Source: Elusimicrobiales bacterium
GTDB taxonomy: Bacteria > Elusimicrobiota > Elusimicrobia > Elusimicrobiales > UBA9959
Length of the DNA: 64,000 bases
Direction: 5' to 3'
Assembly (NCBI GenBank): GCA_023701245.1
Contig: JAMPXK010000005.1
Coordinates: forward strand, 385 to 64,384
Shown in pieces: positions 2,842-42,537 of the stretch. The notes under the pieces are model-generated. The model was given only the letters and a program-made list of their open reading frames with translations, was not told where the DNA came from and ran no database searches. A program made the translations under genes and the position numbers. How positions within the stretch are numbered: position 1 is the first letter of the stretch; every line of letters begins with the position of its first letter.

Positions 2842-3789
2842 ATGGGTATTAAGAGAATCACAGTGCAGGGAAAGGACGTTTCCATTATAGAGAAGGGGAA
2901 CGCCGATTATATCTCGTTGGGTGACATGGCCAGGAAGTTCGGCGATGAACTGCTTGTTTATGCCTGGATGCGCAACCGCAACACAGTGGAATTCCTTGGC
3001 ATATGGGAAAGGTTAAATAACCCGGATTTTAACCCTATCGAATTCGATAGGGTTAAAAAAGAAGCCGGGCTGAACAGTTTTACGCTTTCCCCGAAAAAAT
3101 GGCGCGAAGCGACCGGCGCGATCGGAGTGATTTCAAGGGCCGGGCGTTACGGAGGCGGTATCTTCGCCCATAAGGACATCGCCTTCGAATTCGCGGCCTG
3201 GCTCAGCCCAGAATTCAAACTATACCTGATAAAGGAATTTCAGCGCCTGAAGGAGGCCGAGGCCGAGCGCCTGAAAACAGGCTGGGATGTTCAGCGTGCG
3301 CTCGCTAAAGTGAATTACCGCATCCACACGGACGCCATAAAAGAGGTGCTGCTGCCGCCGCGCCTGGGGCATGCCCAGATAGAAGCCGTCTATGCCAGCG
3401 AGGCGGACCTGCTGAACGTAGCCCTGTTCGGCCGCACGGCGGCGCAGTGGCGGCAGGAGAATCCCGCGAGGCAAGGCAATATGCGTGACTATGCCACTGT
3501 TGATCAGTTGGTTGTTCTTTCAAATCTCGAAAGCGTGAATTCGGTGCTGATTCGGCAGGGGCTGACGCAGAGTCAAAGGCTGCGTCAATTGAATGCCACG
3601 GCGATAGCACAGATGCACTCGCTGCTCGGACTACCGGCTGTCAGGCGCCTTGGGACAAAGGAACCGGAGGCAAAATACACGGCCGGATCAAACCGGAAGT
3701 CAAAGGGGTCGAATTCGACCCCTTATCAATATTTTAATTATGGCGAATCTGCCATATTTAGAACGGTTAGGAGGGTACATGAAAACTAA
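2842..3789 (+). CDS. KilA-N domain protein (antirepressor-like)
   Basis: The N-terminus (ISLGDMARKFG...WMRNRNTVEFLGIWE...GGIFAHKDIAFEFAAWLSPEFKLYLIKEFQRL) matches KilA-N proteins as I remember them. RBS lies before ATG 2842. Confidence 0.8.
   Translation: MGIKRITVQGKDVSIIEKGNADYISLGDMARKFGDELLVYAWMRNRNTVEFLGIWERLNNPDFNPIEFDRVKKEAGLNSFTLSPKKWREATGAIGVISRAGRYGGGIFAHKDIAFEFAAWLSPEFKLYLIKEFQRLKEAEAERLKTGWDVQRALAKVNYRIHTDAIKEVLLPPRLGHAQIEAVYASEADLLNVALFGRTAAQWRQENPARQGNMRDYATVDQLVVLSNLESVNSVLIRQGLTQSQRLRQLNATAIAQMHSLLGLPAVRRLGTKEPEAKYTAGSNRKSKGSNSTPYQYFNYGESAIFRTVRRVHEN
3736..3788 (+). repeat. repeat B' (copy of 5511..5565 junction, contains a decapitated MKT start)
   Basis: ttatggcgaatctgccatatttagaacggttaggagggtacatgaaaac here versus ttgtggcgaattcgccatatttagaacggttaggagggaacatgaaaac at 5511. 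Confidence 0.8.
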
Positions 3790-3792
3790 AGT

Positions 3793-4200
3793 CGGGCTTC
3801 ACCTTACGCCATAGACGTGAAATCCCCCGTGGACCCGGTTGACTGGTTCCTGGCCGGCAAGGACGACGTGCGCTCGTCCTATTATCTGGAGGACGTGGCC
3901 ACGGAATTCCACGTGCAGGGCCTGGAGCTGGACTGGGCCTGCGTCACCTGGGACGCGGACATGCGGTTTACACCCGCGGGCTGGGAGAACTGGTCCTTCA
4001 AGGGCGACAAATGGCTGCGCATCCTCAAAGACGCGCGCAAAGACTACCAGAAGAACGCTTACCGCGTGTTACTCACCCGCGCCCGCCAAGGCATGGTACT
4101 GGTGGTGCCGGAGGGGGAGACCGCGGACCACACCCGGCTCCCGGGGTTCTATAACTCCACCTACGACTACCTGCGGGATATCGGCTTCCCTGTAATTTAA
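3793..4200 (+). pseudogene. orphan 3' fragment of a DUF2075 gene (repeat A2)
   Basis: The 127-aa ORF 3817..4200 is ~95% identical to the C-terminus of the 782..2767 product. It lacks the whole ATPase part. Confidence 0.85.
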
Positions 4201-4220: not shown

Positions 4221-4257
4221 AACCCGACAGACCGTTGTCGGGTTCACCTGCTATGCT
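4221..4257 (+). promoter_or_regulatory. palindrome + extended -10 module copy 2
   Basis: CCCGACA 4223-4229, TGTCGGG 4236-4242, TATGCT 4252-4257. Lies inside repeat A2. Confidence 0.7.
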
Positions 4258-4277: not shown

Positions 4278-5369
4278 ATGGCCAAGAAAAAGCAGGTAAA
4301 GAAGATTGCACATTCGCAGTCACAGCCACCGGCAGTAGTGGATGAAGCCGGGCTTCTTTCCGACCTCCGTGCGCTCATTCAATCCGCCCGCCAGCGCGTG
4401 GCCACAGTGGCCAATTCTACATTTACAATGCTGTACTGGCATGTAGGGCGACGCTTGCTGAAGGAAAACCTTCAAGGAGGCCGTGCTGCCTATGGGAAAC
4501 GAATTCTTGCGACAGTGTCGCAACAATTGAGCGCAGACTTCGGGGAAGGGTTTACTTACTCTGCGCTTACCAGGATGATCCGCTTTGCGGAAGCTCAACC
4601 AGATGAGGCAATTGTGTCGACGCTGTCGACACAATTAAGCTGGAGCCATTTCATGGAGATATTGCCGGTCAAAGATCCGCTCGCCCGGGACTTCTACGCA
4701 GAGATGTGCCGGATCGAGCATTGGGACGTCCGCACGCTGCGCAAAAAGATAGGCGGTATGTTATTCCAGCGCACGGCCCTGTCGAAGAATACCAAGGAGG
4801 TGATCTCGGCGGAACTCGGCAACCTGCGCGCAGGTCATGTAACGCCTGAGACCGTTTTCCGCGACCCGTATATTCTGGATTGCCTGGGCCTGAAAGGAGC
4901 CTATAGTGAACGCGACCTGGAAGGCGCCATCCTGCGCGAGATGGAAGGCTTCCTGCTGGAAATGGGCCCGGGGTTCAGTTTTGTCGCCCGGCAAAAACGT
5001 ATGAGCGTGGGCAAGGATGACTTTCATCTGGACCTGCTCTTCTATCATCGTCACCTGCGCCGGCTGGTCGCCATTGAGTTAAAGCTTGAGTCTTTTCAAC
5101 CGGCCCATGTGGGGCAGATGGAGTTCTACTTGCGCTGGCTGGACAAGCATGAACGAGCACCCGGTGAAAAGTCTCCTATCGGTCTGATACTCTGTGCCTC
5201 TGCCGACGCTGAACAGGTGGAACTCTGTCGGTTGGACGCCAAAGCCATCCGCGTAAGCGAATACCTCACCGAACTGCCGCCCATGCCTCTTCTGCAGACC
5301 CGCCTGCACCAGGCTATAGAGCACGCCCGTGAGCAGGCCGCCATGCGCCTCAGAGGAAAGGAGGGGTAA
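4278..5369 (+). CDS. YhcG-like PDDEXK nuclease domain protein (DUF1016)
   Basis: The C-terminal DLLFYHRHLRRLVAIELKLESFQPAHVGQMEFYLRWL is the typical DUF1016/YhcG core. ATG 4278 follows GGGAAGGGGG. Confidence 0.8.
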   Translation: MAKKKQVKKIAHSQSQPPAVVDEAGLLSDLRALIQSARQRVATVANSTFTMLYWHVGRRLLKENLQGGRAAYGKRILATVSQQLSADFGEGFTYSALTRMIRFAEAQPDEAIVSTLSTQLSWSHFMEILPVKDPLARDFYAEMCRIEHWDVRTLRKKIGGMLFQRTALSKNTKEVISAELGNLRAGHVTPETVFRDPYILDCLGLKGAYSERDLEGAILREMEGFLLEMGPGFSFVARQKRMSVGKDDFHLDLLFYHRHLRRLVAIELKLESFQPAHVGQMEFYLRWLDKHERAPGEKSPIGLILCASADAEQVELCRLDAKAIRVSEYLTELPPMPLLQTRLHQAIEHAREQAAMRLRGKEG

Positions 5370-6941: not shown

Positions 6942-6977
6942 CCCCGACACTACGGTGTCGGGGTGGTCTGCTATGCT
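6942..6977 (+). promoter_or_regulatory. palindrome + extended -10 module copy 3
   Basis: CCCGACA 6943-6949, TGTCGGG 6956-6962, TATGCT 6972-6977. Confidence 0.7.
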
Positions 6978-6999
6978 ATTTGTGAGGAAGAAGGGGATT

Positions 7000-7518
7000 A
7001 TGTCTAAAGAAATTATTCCACATGAGATACTTGAGTCAAAGATACTTTTGATCCGTAAACATAAAGTCCTGCTCGACCGCGACCTCGCAGCTCTATACCA
7101 GGTTGAAACCCGCGTATTGAACCAGGCGGTAAGACGTAATCTCGACCGCTTCCCGGAGGACTTTATTTTTAAGTTGACCCGCGATGAAATACGAGACTTA
7201 TCACAATTTGTGATAAGTCCGGGGCTCAAACATGCTCCTAACGTATTTGCGTTTACGGAGCAGGGGGTGGCGATGCTTTCCGGGGTGCTTCACAGTAAGC
7301 GCGCCATAGCGGTCAACATCGCTATAATGCGCACCTTCGTCAAATTGCGTGGGTTGCTGGCCGAGCACGTTGACCTGAGGCGCAAACTGGAGGAGATGGA
7401 AAAGAAATATGACTACCAGTTCAAAGTGGTGTTCGACGCCATTAAAAGCCTTATCGCGGAGCCGCCGCCGGTTAAGAAGATAGGTTTTACGGCAAAGATC
7501 CAGGGTCACAATTTGTGA
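7000..7518 (+). CDS. ORF6N domain protein (Rha/antirepressor-like DNA-binding)
   Basis: VLLDRDLAALYQVETRVLNQAVRRNLDRFPEDFIFKLT...FAFTEQGVAMLSGVLHSKRAIAVNIAIMRTF is the typical ORF6N core. AAGGGG RBS precedes ATG 7000. Confidence 0.8.
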   Translation: MSKEIIPHEILESKILLIRKHKVLLDRDLAALYQVETRVLNQAVRRNLDRFPEDFIFKLTRDEIRDLSQFVISPGLKHAPNVFAFTEQGVAMLSGVLHSKRAIAVNIAIMRTFVKLRGLLAEHVDLRRKLEEMEKKYDYQFKVVFDAIKSLIAEPPPVKKIGFTAKIQGHNL

Positions 7519-17275: not shown

Positions 17276-17310
17276 CCCGACACTACGCTGTCGGGGCGGC
17301 CTGCTATGCT
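17276..17310 (+). promoter_or_regulatory. palindrome + extended -10 module copy 4 (ssb)
   Basis: CCCGACA 17276-17282, TGTCGGG 17289-17295, TATGCT 17305-17310. Confidence 0.7.
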
Positions 17311-17342: not shown

Positions 17343-17852
17343 ATGGGGAACCTGAATAAAGTGATGCTGATAGGGCGGCTGACGCGCGACCCGGAGGTGA
17401 CGGAGTTCAAGAACGGGGGCAAGGTGGCCAACCTGGGCTTTGCCGTGCACAACCGCCGCAAGAACGCGCAGACCGGCGAGTGGGAGGAAGTGCCGGTGTG
17501 GGTGAGCATGAAGGCCTACAATCACGAGCATGGCCGCAAGCTCGCGGACCTGGCCGCCAGGCTGCACAAGGGGCGGCAGGTGTACGTGGAGGGGCACCTG
17601 GTGCTGGAGCAATGGGACGGCAAAGAGGACGGCAAGCACCATTCCCGGATGCTGGTGTACGTGGACGGCATAGAGTTCCTGGGCGGGGGAAAGCCCGGCG
17701 AAGGCCCGGGCGGCGGGGAAGCCGGCGCCCAGGCGGCGCCCGCGGACCATCTGCCGGGCGAGCACGTGGCAGACGCGGGCTGGCCGGAAGAACTGCCGGA
17801 AGAGCCCGCGGAACCCGCGCCCAGGGCGGCCAGGGGCAAGGGCCGCAAATAG
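17343..17852 (+). CDS. ssb: single-stranded DNA-binding protein
   Basis: OB-fold N-terminus NLNKVMLIGRLTRDPEV...VYVEGHL. The C-terminus ends RGKGRK rather than the acidic DDDIPF-type tip. Confidence 0.9.
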   Translation: MGNLNKVMLIGRLTRDPEVTEFKNGGKVANLGFAVHNRRKNAQTGEWEEVPVWVSMKAYNHEHGRKLADLAARLHKGRQVYVEGHLVLEQWDGKEDGKHHSRMLVYVDGIEFLGGGKPGEGPGGGEAGAQAAPADHLPGEHVADAGWPEELPEEPAEPAPRAARGKGRK

Positions 17853-39342: not shown

Positions 39343-39627
39343 TCAGGCTGAATACATGGGGGTATTTCCTAGCCGTCCATTAACGTCGATATCATGGAGC
39401 AGGGCGGTTTTAGTAATGGAAGCAATATTCTCCAGCCTGAACTGGAGTTCATTGTTCCAGATCCTGAGCCAAACGGTTTCTTTCCCGTCTTTGCTTTCCG
39501 GTTCAAGGATCCCGATCTCGTAACTTTTGGGGACAACGATGCTCTCGGCGCTCCCATCGCGCATTTTTATTTTAACGCAGTTGCCGCGAAAAGATCTGAG
39601 CTGGTTAAAGACGGTCTCTTTGTTCAT
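39343..39627 (-). CDS. hypothetical small protein (94 aa), AT-rich, immediately downstream of lexA
   Basis: AGGAGGG RBS before the ATG. Lower GC than the flanks. No family recognised. Confidence 0.6.
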   Translation of the reverse strand: MNKETVFNQLRSFRGNCVKIKMRDGSAESIVVPKSYEIGILEPESKDGKETVWLRIWNNELQFRLENIASITKTALLHDIDVNGRLGNTPMYSA

Positions 39628-39669: not shown

Positions 39670-40326
39670 TTATTTCTTAATGACGGCGACGGCTTTGCCG
39701 TTTATGAGGAAGTCGTCGTCGGGGTGCAGGTAGATGGGCTCGTAGTCGTGGGAGGAGTCCGCCTTCAGGATCACCTGGCCGTTGGGGCGGTCGTCTATGA
39801 AGCGCTTGATGGTGGCCTTGTTGTCTATGATGGCCAGCACGATGTCGTTGTTGGCCGGCACGCGCTTGTTGCTGTCTATCACCACGTAGTCGCCGTCCTC
39901 TATCTTCTTGCCGGCTATTTCGGCGCGGTTCATGGACGAGCCGTTGGTCTTTATGGCGTAGAGGCCGGCCGGGGTGGCGCGGCCCACCAGGCGCCCGGAG
40001 ACGCGCAGGAAGCCTTCGAAGTTCTGTTCGGCGTAGATGGTGGCGGCGCCGCAGTTGGCGGTGCCTACTATAGGAATAGAAAATAATGAGGAGGCTTCTT
40101 TCAGCAGGCCGTGCGCCAGGCCCGGCAGCAGCTTGGCTTTCTCCATCATGCCCTTGGCCTTGTCTATGGTGAAGAAGCCTTTCTTCTCCAGCTGCTGGAG
40201 ATGATGCTTTATTTTCTGGGGGGATTCCTTCGGCAGGCCGATGGCCGCGGCCATCTCGCGCAGGCTGATCTGGGCCAGGTTGGTCTTCTTGGAAAGGGTT
40301 AAAAGTTTTTCCTGTATGGGGTGCAT
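39670..40326 (-). CDS. lexA: LexA-type repressor (wHTH + S24 peptidase)
   Basis: N-terminal winged-helix region, then the S24 catalytic GSSM ... KRF pair. Confidence 0.85.
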   Translation of the reverse strand: MHPIQEKLLTLSKKTNLAQISLREMAAAIGLPKESPQKIKHHLQQLEKKGFFTIDKAKGMMEKAKLLPGLAHGLLKEASSLFSIPIVGTANCGAATIYAEQNFEGFLRVSGRLVGRATPAGLYAIKTNGSSMNRAEIAGKKIEDGDYVVIDSNKRVPANNDIVLAIIDNKATIKRFIDDRPNGQVILKADSSHDYEPIYLHPDDDFLINGKAVAVIKK

Positions 40327-40333
40327 ATATATA

Positions 40334-40362
40334 AGGATAGCACACTAAACCGGTAAAGTCAA
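40334..40362 (-). promoter_or_regulatory. lexA promoter TTGACT-N17-(TGc)TATCCT
   Basis: Read on the minus strand. The -10 ends 7 nt before ATG 40326, so this is a leaderless candidate. Confidence 0.55.
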
Positions 40363-40376
40363 TATCTCCTTAATAC

Positions 40377-40405
40377 TTGACAGATGGAGGAAAATCGTCT
40401 ATACT
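40377..40405 (+). promoter_or_regulatory. distal recA promoter TTGACA-N17-TATACT
   Basis: Near-consensus sigma70 hexamers with a 17-nt spacer. Confidence 0.6.
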
Positions 40406-40473
40406 CAAGGGAGTTGCGGTGAGGCTGTTTTTGGGCGCGGCGCAGAAATGTTAACATAATATATGCCCCGCAA

Positions 40474-40508
40474 CCCGACACAACGGTGTCGGGATGAGTT
40501 GGTAGACT
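40474..40508 (+). promoter_or_regulatory. palindrome + extended -10 module copy 5 (recA proximal)
   Basis: CCCGACA 40474-40480, TGTCGGG 40487-40493, TGgTAGACT 40500-40508. Confidence 0.7.
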
Positions 40509-40543
40509 ATTTGTGTAAGAAAATTTAACGGAGGTTACAAAAC

Positions 40544-41649
<1,106 letters not shown>

Positions 41650-41650
<1 letters not shown>

Positions 41651-42537
41651 TGCGACCGCTGGCGGCTGACTTCTCGCGTCATCTCGGCATGGAGCGGGGC
41701 CTGGCAAAGAACACCTGCCTCGCCTATGCCGGGGACGCGGAGGCCTTCCTGGCCTATTGCGAGGGCAGGAAGACGGACCCCGCGCGGGCCGAAGCGCCGT
41801 TCATAGAAGAATACCTGTGGTCGCTAAAGACCGTGCGCAAGCTGGGGCCCGCGTCCATCTTCCGCAAGACCGAGGCCATCCGCGCCTTCTACCGCTACCT
41901 GCGGCTGGAAGGCAAGGCCGCCAAAGATCCCACCGCCAATTTCCGCGCTCCCAAACTGCCCCGCAAAGTGCCGCGCTTCCTGGCGCGGCGCGACATGGAA
42001 CGCCTGCTGAGCTACCCGGCGGGAGAGGCTTTTGCCAAGCTGCGGGCAGCCGCCGCCGTGGAACTGCTGTACGCCAGCGGCATAAGGGTGTCCGAACTGC
42101 TGGGCCTGCGCCTGGAGTCCGTAAATTTCCAGCAGGGCTGGCTGCGCGTGTTCGGCAAGGGCGCCAAGGAACGCATGGTGCCGGTCAACGCGGCCGCCCT
42201 GTCGCGCCTGCGGGACTATTTGTCCGCCCGGCAGCAGAAGTTCGGCGGCACGCCGGTGGCCGACGAACTGTTCCTGAACCGCGGCGGCAAACAGCTCAGC
42301 CGCGTGCAGATGTGGAAGGATATAGTGGCTTTCGGCCGCGCGGCGGGGGTGGAACTGAAGCCGCACCCGCACCTGTTCCGGCACACCTTCGCCAGCCACC
42401 TGGTGCAGGGCGGCGCGGACCTGCGCAGCGTCCAGGAGATGCTGGGCCACGCCAGCCTTAACACCACCCAGATCTACGCCCACGTGGACAAGGGCGACAT
42501 AAAGCGCGCCCACGACAAGTTTCACCCCGACAAGTAA
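41650..42537 (+). CDS. xerD: tyrosine recombinase XerC/XerD family
   Basis: R..HxxR..Y motifs: LFRHTFASHLVQGGADLRSVQEMLGHASLNTTQIYAHV. The ATG overlaps the recA TAA by 1 nt. Confidence 0.85.

Follow-up and report, generated by a model that had tools for sequence, protein, structure and literature searches.

Introduction

Which regulator acts on recA when a palindrome lies on the recA side of the lexA-recA intergenic region and has no counterpart on the lexA side? The question is raised by a stretch of 64,000 nucleotides (nt) from an Elusimicrobiales bacterium (GenBank assembly GCA_023701245.1, contig JAMPXK010000005.1, positions 385 to 64,384), which was analysed at its full length and is called the window here. 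Its DNA is about 86% identical to that of Elusimicrobia bacterium GWA2_62_23, and its LexA is 98% identical to the GWA2_62_23 protein. In the window, a lexA homologue (39670-40326, minus strand) and recA (40544-41650, plus strand) are divergently oriented and 217 bp apart, and the palindrome, a dyad of the form CCCGACA-N6-TGTCGGG, is located at 40474-40493. An initial annotation read the dyad as a site at which a bound protein would block transcription of recA, and offered LexA and a protein other than LexA as its possible binders.

Here we report a comparison of this region with related loci, according to which the dyad and the -10 element that follows it probably form a single promoter that has no -35 element, is specific to Elusimicrobia and drives a regulon responding to DNA damage or single-stranded DNA (ssDNA). 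The dyad promoter of recA would be activated by a WYL-domain protein independently of LexA, and the distal recA promoter would be the one linked to LexA, an arrangement of the PafBC and DriD kind that is proposed by analogy with mycobacteria. No published work on LexA or WYL regulation in Elusimicrobia was found.

The two recA promoters

For comparison, 80 loci of LexA relatives (62-98% identity) were fetched, which together comprise 454 kb of metagenome DNA chosen via the LexA protein and not via any DNA motif. The divergent neighbour of lexA was recA only in the 16 closest relatives, whose intergenic regions were aligned with that of the window to give 17 aligned regions. Conserved blocks in the 16 related regions include both hexamers of the lexA promoter, the invariant sequence CTCCTTAATACTTGACA, the distal recA -10 element, the sequence AAATGTTAACATAAT (in 13 of the 17 aligned regions), the dyad with its -10 element, and the ribosome-binding site of recA.

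The initial annotation had proposed two promoters for recA, and the conservation of both in the related regions supports this. The distal promoter, TTGACA-N17-TATACT (40377-40405, plus strand), matches the consensus at 11 of 12 positions and is kept in every one of the 17 aligned regions, that of the window included; transcription from it would start near 40412 and yield a leader of about 130 nt. A promoter scan of 1.5 kb returned 3 sigma-70-like sites, with 0.9 expected.

The proximal promoter contains the dyad itself, which in its longer form reads aaCCCGACA-CAACGG-TGTCGGGat (40472-40495, plus strand). The dyad and its 6-nt gap to a -10 element were found as initially described, and its conservation across relatives, which had been named as a point to check, was high: a single mismatch, in locus L125, was the only change in the arms among the 17 aligned regions, and the loop was variable. 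The -10 element, TGG followed by TAGACT (TGGTAGACT, 40500-40508, plus strand), is located 6 nt past the dyad, and a TAnnnT hexamer was present 9 nt past the dyad at all 17 recA sites. Relative to the inferred proximal transcription start at about 40515, the dyad spans positions of about -43 to -20. There is no -35 element in this promoter, the hexamer at the corresponding position being ACAACG (2 of 6 matches). The region of the recA -10 element reads TTGTAGACT, ATGTAGACT or TCGTATACT in 14 of the 16 relatives, with neither a TGn extension nor a -35 element, and these promoters are therefore predicted to be weak without an activator. On the lexA side, no copy of the dyad was detected in the window or in the 80 relatives, as initially reported for the window, and the only dyads within approximately 4 kb of the lexA relatives were those at recA.

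The dyad promoter in Elusimicrobia

The window contains five copies of the exact 14-base dyad, starting at 2788, 4223, 6943, 17276 and 40474. Each is followed by 6 nt, by TGCTATGCT (TGGTAGACT at recA), by a short leader with a ribosome-binding site, and by a gene on the same strand. Besides the one at recA, the promoters composed of the dyad, 6 nt and TGCTATGCT are located, all on the plus strand, at 2788-2822 upstream of a KilA-N gene (2842-3789), at 4223-4257 upstream of a gene for a YhcG/DUF1016 nuclease of the PD-(D/E)XK type (4278-5369), at 6943-6977 upstream of an ORF6N-domain gene (6997-7518), and at 17276-17310 upstream of ssb (17343-17852). The pattern TGTCGG-N10-TAnnnT occurred five times in the window, where 0.05 occurrences were expected, and CGACA-N6-TGTCG with up to one mismatch occurred five times against 1.13 expected.

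The distribution of the promoter was assessed with a scan of GTDB (one genome per species; 596 Gb, both strands) for the pattern CCCGACA-N6-TGTCGGG-N6-TGNTANNNT, which has 19 fixed bases. At least 117 stretches with at least 128 sites were recovered, compared with about 4 expected by chance according to our own calculation. Among the matches listed, the metagenome-assembled genomes (MAGs) were labelled Elusimicrobia, Elusimicrobiota, Elusimicrobiales, Elusimicrobiaceae or simply 'bacterium', and no other phylum was named. Neither recA nor lexA was among the 117 dyad loci listed; for recA this is explained in part by the -10 element of most relatives, which does not have the TGn that the strict pattern demands.

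The spacing between dyad and -10 element was also fixed at sites that had been collected without reference to it. In the 454 kb of LexA-relative loci, the only dyads were the 17 at recA, with TAnnnT at offset 9 in each case. In the 776 kb of loci from the GTDB scan, 20 additional dyads (up to two mismatches) were present outside the search pattern, and 14 of them had TAnnnT at offset 9; most of the remaining six appear to be decayed sites or to match by chance. The logo built from 162 unique sites is cAaCCCGACA-nnmCst-TGTCGGGtT-sgtc-TGc-TAtrCT-AT. In this logo the palindrome reaches arms of 9 bp, the -35 position (17 nt before the -10 element) is occupied by the last A of the left arm and five variable loop bases, and the -10 element is extended, with T at 157 and G at 143 of the 162 sites. 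An ATG exactly 6 nt past the -10 element was found in 22 of 128 dyad promoters (L002-L118), which independently supports the assignment of the -10 element and of the transcription start; leaderless mRNAs thus seem to be common in the lineage and not restricted to lexA.

These properties bear on the role initially assigned to the dyad, namely that a protein bound there would occlude the proximal promoter and roadblock the distal one. This role is not favoured by the comparison, since the dyad substitutes for the -35 element, at a fixed distance to the -10 element, in about 160 promoters and matches the binding sites of known activators (see below). It is more likely, judging from these sequence features, that the dyad is an integral activating element of the proximal recA promoter than that it is a roadblock. 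A related explanation, implicit in the initial annotation, is that the dyad is the operator of a repressor, either a WYL protein like CapW or BrxR or an unrelated dimeric helix-turn-helix (HTH) protein, which covers positions -41 to -22 of an extended -10 promoter and is released after damage. A palindrome overlapping the polymerase footprint is classical repressor geometry, and the TGnTAnnnT sequence of most regulon promoters can work without a -35 element. We nevertheless regard this explanation as unlikely, because a repressor has no need of a -10 spacing that is invariant in about 160 promoters and because the recA promoter has no TGn in most relatives; further evidence comes from the regulator discussed below.

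The same data speak to the explanation that the dyad has no role in the binding of a transcription factor and is instead a structural or mobile repeat, that is, a REP-like hairpin, a target of Y1 transposases, or a stem-loop in the RNA leader transcribed from the distal promoter. The perfect 7-bp stem would fold in that leader, genes of the Y1_Tnp family are among the downstream genes, and a duplicated gene end flanks two of the window dyads, which suggests movement of a cassette. This explanation is nonetheless highly improbable in our view. The dyad has a constant orientation and spacing with respect to the -10 element and the downstream gene; its arms are invariant, and mismatched variants have changes in one arm only with no compensating change in the other, from which we conclude that the dyad is read as double-stranded DNA and is not a conserved RNA stem. 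There is also no T-run (U-run in the transcript) past the dyad and no terminator was called there, the fold of the distal leader is not unusual (z = -1.28), and no Rfam match was obtained in 40200-40700.

Genes downstream of dyad promoters

Dyad promoters precede more than 150 Elusimicrobial genes of DNA repair or of mobile elements, and the regulon is enriched in genes of DNA repair and recombination. Genes of this type downstream of dyad promoters include recA, ssb, recQ, a UvrD/PD-(D/E)XK helicase-nuclease gene, radC, comM, and the gene of a radical-SAM/HhH repair protein. A second set consists of genes of mobile-element or defence type, which encode KilA-N, ORF6N, Bro-N, RhuM, DUF1016, AlbA_2, DUF3800 and DUF2779 proteins, toxins, and Y1/Y2 transposases.

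The largest apparent protein family of the regulon (11 members of about 310 aa, no Pfam match) was rejected, as its members are ORFs antisense to a convergent ComEC-like gene. At 11 loci (L013:541, L036:487, L072:486, L086:4058, L094, L095 and others), the dyad promoter aims into the 3' end of this convergent gene, which encodes a ComEC-like metallo-beta-lactamase with a signal peptide and has its stop codon, on the opposite strand, 59-86 nt from the dyad. Judging from this layout, dyad promoters that face ComEC-like genes could give rise to a damage-induced antisense RNA or express a tiny open reading frame (ORF).

In the window, near-identical gene 3' ends (…GFYNSTY(E/D)YL..IGFPVI*) at 2700-2767 and 4140-4200 precede the dyads at 2788 and 4223. 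The ORF at 3817-4200 looks like a fragment duplicated from the C-terminal part of the SLFN-g3/DUF2075 helicase encoded at 773-2767, and the dyad and KilA-N gene may have been inserted as a cassette with duplication of this end.

Comparison with PafBC and DriD promoters

The layout of the Elusimicrobial promoters was compared with that of two damage-responsive activators. The in vivo consensus of PafBC is tGTCgg(N10)tA(N3)T without a -35 element, with a '-26 element' whose GTC triplet is read by two arginines (PMC8635444), and the motif of the mycobacterial proximal recA promoter is tTGTCRgtg-8nt-TAnnnT (PMC5656591). The Elusimicrobial TGTCGGG-N6-TGc-TAnnnT fits both forms, including the number of bases. 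As with PafBC, TGTCGG is located 10 nt from TAnnnT in the absence of a -35 element, and DNA repair is at the centre of the regulon, with recA and ssb among its genes. The recA gene of mycobacteria (Mycobacterium tuberculosis and M. smegmatis) has a proximal promoter that is LexA-independent and PafBC-dependent and a distal one that is LexA-dependent (PMC5656591). The two systems differ in that the Elusimicrobial site is a full palindrome of 24 bp, implying that the regulator binds as a homodimer and places both HTH domains on the DNA, whereas in the PafBC heterodimer the DNA is read by PafB alone and sigma is contacted by PafC. Unlike PafBC promoters, most Elusimicrobial ones carry TGn; they also belong to another phylum, and no Pup-proteasome context was seen.

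DriD of Caulobacter crescentus is a homodimeric WYL activator with ssDNA as effector and a palindromic site with the same CGACA/TGTCG core (PMC13004042; PMC10853764; PMC9186387). Its ideal site is ATACGACAGTAACTGTCGTAT (CGACA-N5-TGTCG), which overlaps the missing -35 element and is located at an identical distance to the -10 element in all targets (PMC13004042). In our reading, the DriD promoter printed in that paper contains TGTCGC-N10-CAATCT, the same spacing as in Elusimicrobia; the -35 element engineered in the same study is positioned 17 nt from CAATCT, which confirms CAATCT as the -10 element. DriD promoters include those of didA, bapE, CCNA_03891, recJ, dnaG and recA, and the last of these is also controlled by LexA, as is proposed for recA in the window. 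The flanks of the core are CCC/GGG in Elusimicrobia and ATA/TAT in DriD sites, and the sampled Elusimicrobial regulon is far larger than that of DriD and rich in genes of mobile-element or defence type. The half-site and spacing of the dyad thus coincide with those of two structurally characterised activators, which argues against a repressor operator, and their recurrence across three phyla points to a single conserved geometry of activation.

A candidate regulator

A gene for a possible binder of the dyad was sought with a regular expression for HTH_11-type recognition helices, applied to six-frame ORFs of all fetched loci. It recovered one family of 315-320 aa (one member has 317 aa), encoded in dyad-bearing MAGs. 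Pfam assigned the domains HTH_11, WYL and WCX to the family, together with weak HTH_PafC matches, which is the architecture of PafBC. We propose this putatively homodimeric HTH-WYL-WCX protein as a candidate for the dyad binder on the basis of its domains and its genomic association with the dyad.

Six dyad loci, from six MAGs, contain the regulator gene, with a dyad promoter approximately 1.65 kb downstream of it on the same strand. The order at these loci (L088:570-3430; L024, L092, L099, L078 and L065) is fixed: a tRNA gene, the regulator gene, a gene of 349 aa, a small membrane-protein gene, and the dyad promoter. This dyad promoter drives a small gene, either an ORF of 64-68 aa beginning with MTNKNR or one for a protein of 98-118 aa beginning with MKW, for which no Pfam matches were obtained. 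No dyad (up to two mismatches) was present in the regulator's own promoter in the four loci that contain that promoter. Homologues of the regulator formed 105 protein-database clusters, and every taxonomic label that was present was Elusimicrobial. Named homologues occur in GWA2_61_42, GWC2_64_44, GWF2_62_30 and GWD2_63_28, all of which have dyad loci, and a partial homologue carries the incomplete label CG08_land_8_20_14_0_20_. One MAG (locus-tag prefix DEQ38) encodes both the regulator and the LexA homologue.

The regulator was compared with solved structures by searching the PDB with a profile of 36 sequences and by searching with an AlphaFold model (pLDDT 73) in Foldseek. The profile matched DriD with E-values of 2e-9 to 8e-9, full-length PafC with 3e-7, PafBC with 2e-6 and BrxR with 0.04, and gave no hit to CapW; the corresponding Foldseek values were 4e-14 for DriD, 2e-13 for PafBC and PafC, 2e-9 for CapW and 8e-9 for BrxR. 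A profile of 4 sequences matched PafBC alone (E = 0.01). No match was obtained when a single regulator sequence was searched against the PDB, when the literal regular expression WYL…RxFRxxRI was used, or when BrxR from pEFER served as the phmmer query. Sequence identity of the regulator to DriD is approximately 17-22%.

Two arginines of the recognition helix, R40 and R44 (SERSIQRD), are invariant. Their i/i+4 spacing is like that of R37/R41 in DriD and R46/R50 in PafB, which read the two guanines of the GTC core, and we infer an equivalent function from this likeness. Y177 and R194 are likewise invariant and align with a tyrosine and an arginine of DriD, which we take to be the ssDNA-contacting residues Tyr192 and Arg207, with the numbering deduced from the local sequence.

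The regulator also provides the remaining evidence on repression. CapW, which is associated with CBASS, and BrxR, which is associated with BREX, share the HTH-WYL-WCX fold, bind palindromic operators, sense ssDNA or damage and were among the fold matches, although as weaker ones. Both are local repressors that stand beside one defence operon and regulate their own synthesis through their own promoter. The Elusimicrobial system differs from them by having no dyad in the regulator's own promoter and by having sites that are dispersed over the genome at a fixed promoter geometry, and DriD and PafBC match its regulator better than CapW and BrxR do, by four to five orders of magnitude. WYL repressors that sense ssDNA nevertheless exist (PMC11662680).

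The lexA promoter and its linked element

The lexA homologue (39670-40326, minus strand) encodes 218 aa with a winged HTH and an S24 autopeptidase domain (Pfam Peptidase_S24, 6.2e-19; LexA_DNA_bind, 3.7e-6). The translation contains Cys-Gly at the position of the cleavage site (NCG-AA), Ser in GSSM and Lys in ATIKR, so that a LexA homologue with winged HTH, cleavage site and Ser/Lys dyad is present next to recA. The LexA family had 1297 matches at E <= 1e-20.

The lexA promoter (40334-40362, minus strand) consists of TTGACT (40362-40357), a spacer of 17 nt, and TGc followed by TATCCT (40342-40334; hexamer at 40339-40334), and its -10 element ends 7 nt before the ATG at 40326. No Shine-Dalgarno sequence precedes lexA in the window. 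The initial annotation had described this promoter and inferred a leaderless transcript, which the relatives bear out: TAnnnT ends 4-9 nt before the lexA ATG in 56 of 69 distinct upstream regions (the mode is 6 nt, with 31 cases), and a Shine-Dalgarno-like sequence is present in one of the 69. By these distances, the lexA mRNA would be leaderless across the family, with a predicted transcription start at 40326-40327 in the window.

A different element is linked to lexA. The sequence tGTCAAGTATTAAGGAGATA (40364-40383, minus strand) abuts the lexA -35 element and overlaps the -35 element of the distal recA promoter. Its consensus, tGTCAAGTwTTAmGGA, hardly varies among the 69 distinct lexA upstream regions, irrespective of which gene is adjacent, and in some relatives a TATTAAG or GTCAAG unit is directly repeated. 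When up to two mismatches are allowed, 60 of the 80 loci have it no more than 130 nt upstream of lexA, and it occurs nowhere else in the 454 kb; none was found in the 776 kb of dyad loci, and the window contains a single copy (40367-40381, minus strand). A divergent TTGACA-N17-TAnnnT promoter adjoins lexA even where recA is not the neighbour; its -10 element is on the far side of the lexA-linked element, which covers its -35 element (in the window, that of the distal recA promoter). This conserved position makes the element the best candidate for the LexA operator, which the lexA and distal recA promoters would share. In view of this element, it is not necessary to assume that lexA is not autoregulated, as the initial annotation had considered. 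Its alternative that the dyad binder is not LexA is favoured, given that lexA has no dyad and that the dyad matches PafBC and DriD sites.

Among distant lexA relatives (L136-L198), the divergent partners are varied small genes, so that lexA and its back-to-back promoter pair behave like a portable two-promoter module. The window LexA is 72% identical to a copy in a MAG labelled Candidatus Paceibacterota (L140/L202, P0186); three direct GTCAAG repeats are located upstream of that lexA, and its divergent neighbour is a gene of 61 aa. The lexA-linked element was found only at lexA, and the LexA regulon may thus be very small.

The arrangement resembles canonical divergent lexA-recA pairs in having an S24-autopeptidase LexA homologue beside recA and a conserved element in the shared region. 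It differs from the canonical SOS system in that the dyad is absent from the lexA promoter and that GTCAAGTwTTAmGGA, found only at lexA, is not a classical palindrome. It might still be proposed that this lineage uses the dyad as its LexA box, through which LexA represses recA, ssb and the other genes, and that lexA is either not autoregulated or controlled from the site near recA. Palindromes of comparable size serve as LexA boxes, the classical SOS genes include recA and ssb, and LexA-like proteins are encoded in the dyad-bearing MAGs GWA2_62_23, GWC2_61_19 and HGW-Elusimicrobia-3. We consider this very unlikely, as the lexA relatives that are not adjacent to recA have no dyad within approximately 4 kb and share a different, lexA-only element, so that lexA and the regulon promoters do not have the same operator. 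The 72%-identical LexA of the Paceibacterota-labelled MAG is associated with the GTCAAG repeats, while no phylum other than Elusimicrobia was named among the dyad matches listed. Furthermore, the distance of SOS boxes to the -10 element is not fixed, and the dyad motif equals the sites of PafBC and DriD.

Proposed mechanism and implications

In the explanation that we consider probable, activation by a WYL protein, the HTH-WYL-WCX homodimer would be made constitutively and, as the counterpart of DriD and PafBC, would take up ssDNA in its WYL domain after damage. Loaded with ssDNA, it would then bind the 24-bp palindrome aACCCGACA-N6-TGTCGGGTt, centred at about -31.5. From its position at about -43 to -20, the bound regulator would supply the missing upstream contact and recruit or adapt the housekeeping RNA polymerase to the -10 element 9 nt downstream. 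The distal recA promoter, a strong consensus sigma-70 promoter, would probably be held down by LexA through the element shared with the divergent leaderless lexA.

The assignment of proteins to sites, the choice of activation over repression and the ssDNA signal are inferred, and the sign of regulation is the main uncertainty. Several observations weigh against this explanation. The extended -10 elements of most regulon promoters could make an activator dispensable and would be compatible with a repressor as well, and WYL repressors such as CapW and BrxR are known. The Elusimicrobial half-sites are 1 bp further apart than those of DriD (CGACA-N6-TGTCG versus N5), and the centre is GC-rich and not AT-rich. 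There is no regulator gene within the 64-kb window, the regulator being known from related genomes, and the residue equivalences in its N-terminal part follow from spacing and position. On the LexA side, the candidate operator, which is proposed from its conservation, is upstream of the lexA -35 element, an unusual position for autorepression.

A more far-reaching proposal, which we put forward tentatively and hold to be possible though doubtful, is that the damage response of this lineage has largely moved away from LexA and is now governed by a WYL activator, a homodimer whose site is a full palindrome located where PafBC has its '-26' element, leaving LexA as a two-promoter module for itself and one neighbour, here the distal recA promoter. 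On this proposal, the activation geometry TGTCG-N11-(-10) would be common to regulators of three distant phyla, for which common descent is one explanation, and the regulon would couple repair genes with dozens of genes of mobile-element or defence type and with antisense promoters. If activation by the WYL protein is correct, the SOS-independent WYL damage response, which has so far been characterised only in Actinobacteria and Caulobacter, would extend to an uncultivated phylum, and recA is predicted to be wired to two damage sensors. Genes for KilA-N, ORF6N, DUF1016, DUF2779, AlbA_2 and DUF3800 proteins, all poorly understood, would be flagged as likely to be induced by damage or ssDNA. As a resource for studying how such activators replace the -35 contact, the system would offer approximately 160 natural variants of the promoter and over 100 sequences of the regulator.

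Other features of the lexA-recA region

The recA gene (40544-41650, plus strand) encodes 368 aa (Pfam RecA, 1.7e-136) and is preceded by the ribosome-binding site CGGAGGT (40530-40536, plus strand), in which ACGGAGG is unchanged in the 17 aligned regions. Its stop codon overlaps the start of a gene for an XerD-like tyrosine recombinase (41650-42537), with which recA is probably co-transcribed. The conserved sequence AAATGTTAACATAAT (40446-40460, no strand assigned) includes the perfect 10-bp palindrome ATGTTAACAT; the exact sequence occurs once in the window, which has one further match with three mismatches. AAATGTTAACATAAT also fits TGnTAnnnT on either strand. Immediately 3' of lexA is an ORF of 94 aa (39343-39627, minus strand), which has no Pfam match and was also called as a gene on a Logan contig with an identical lexA.

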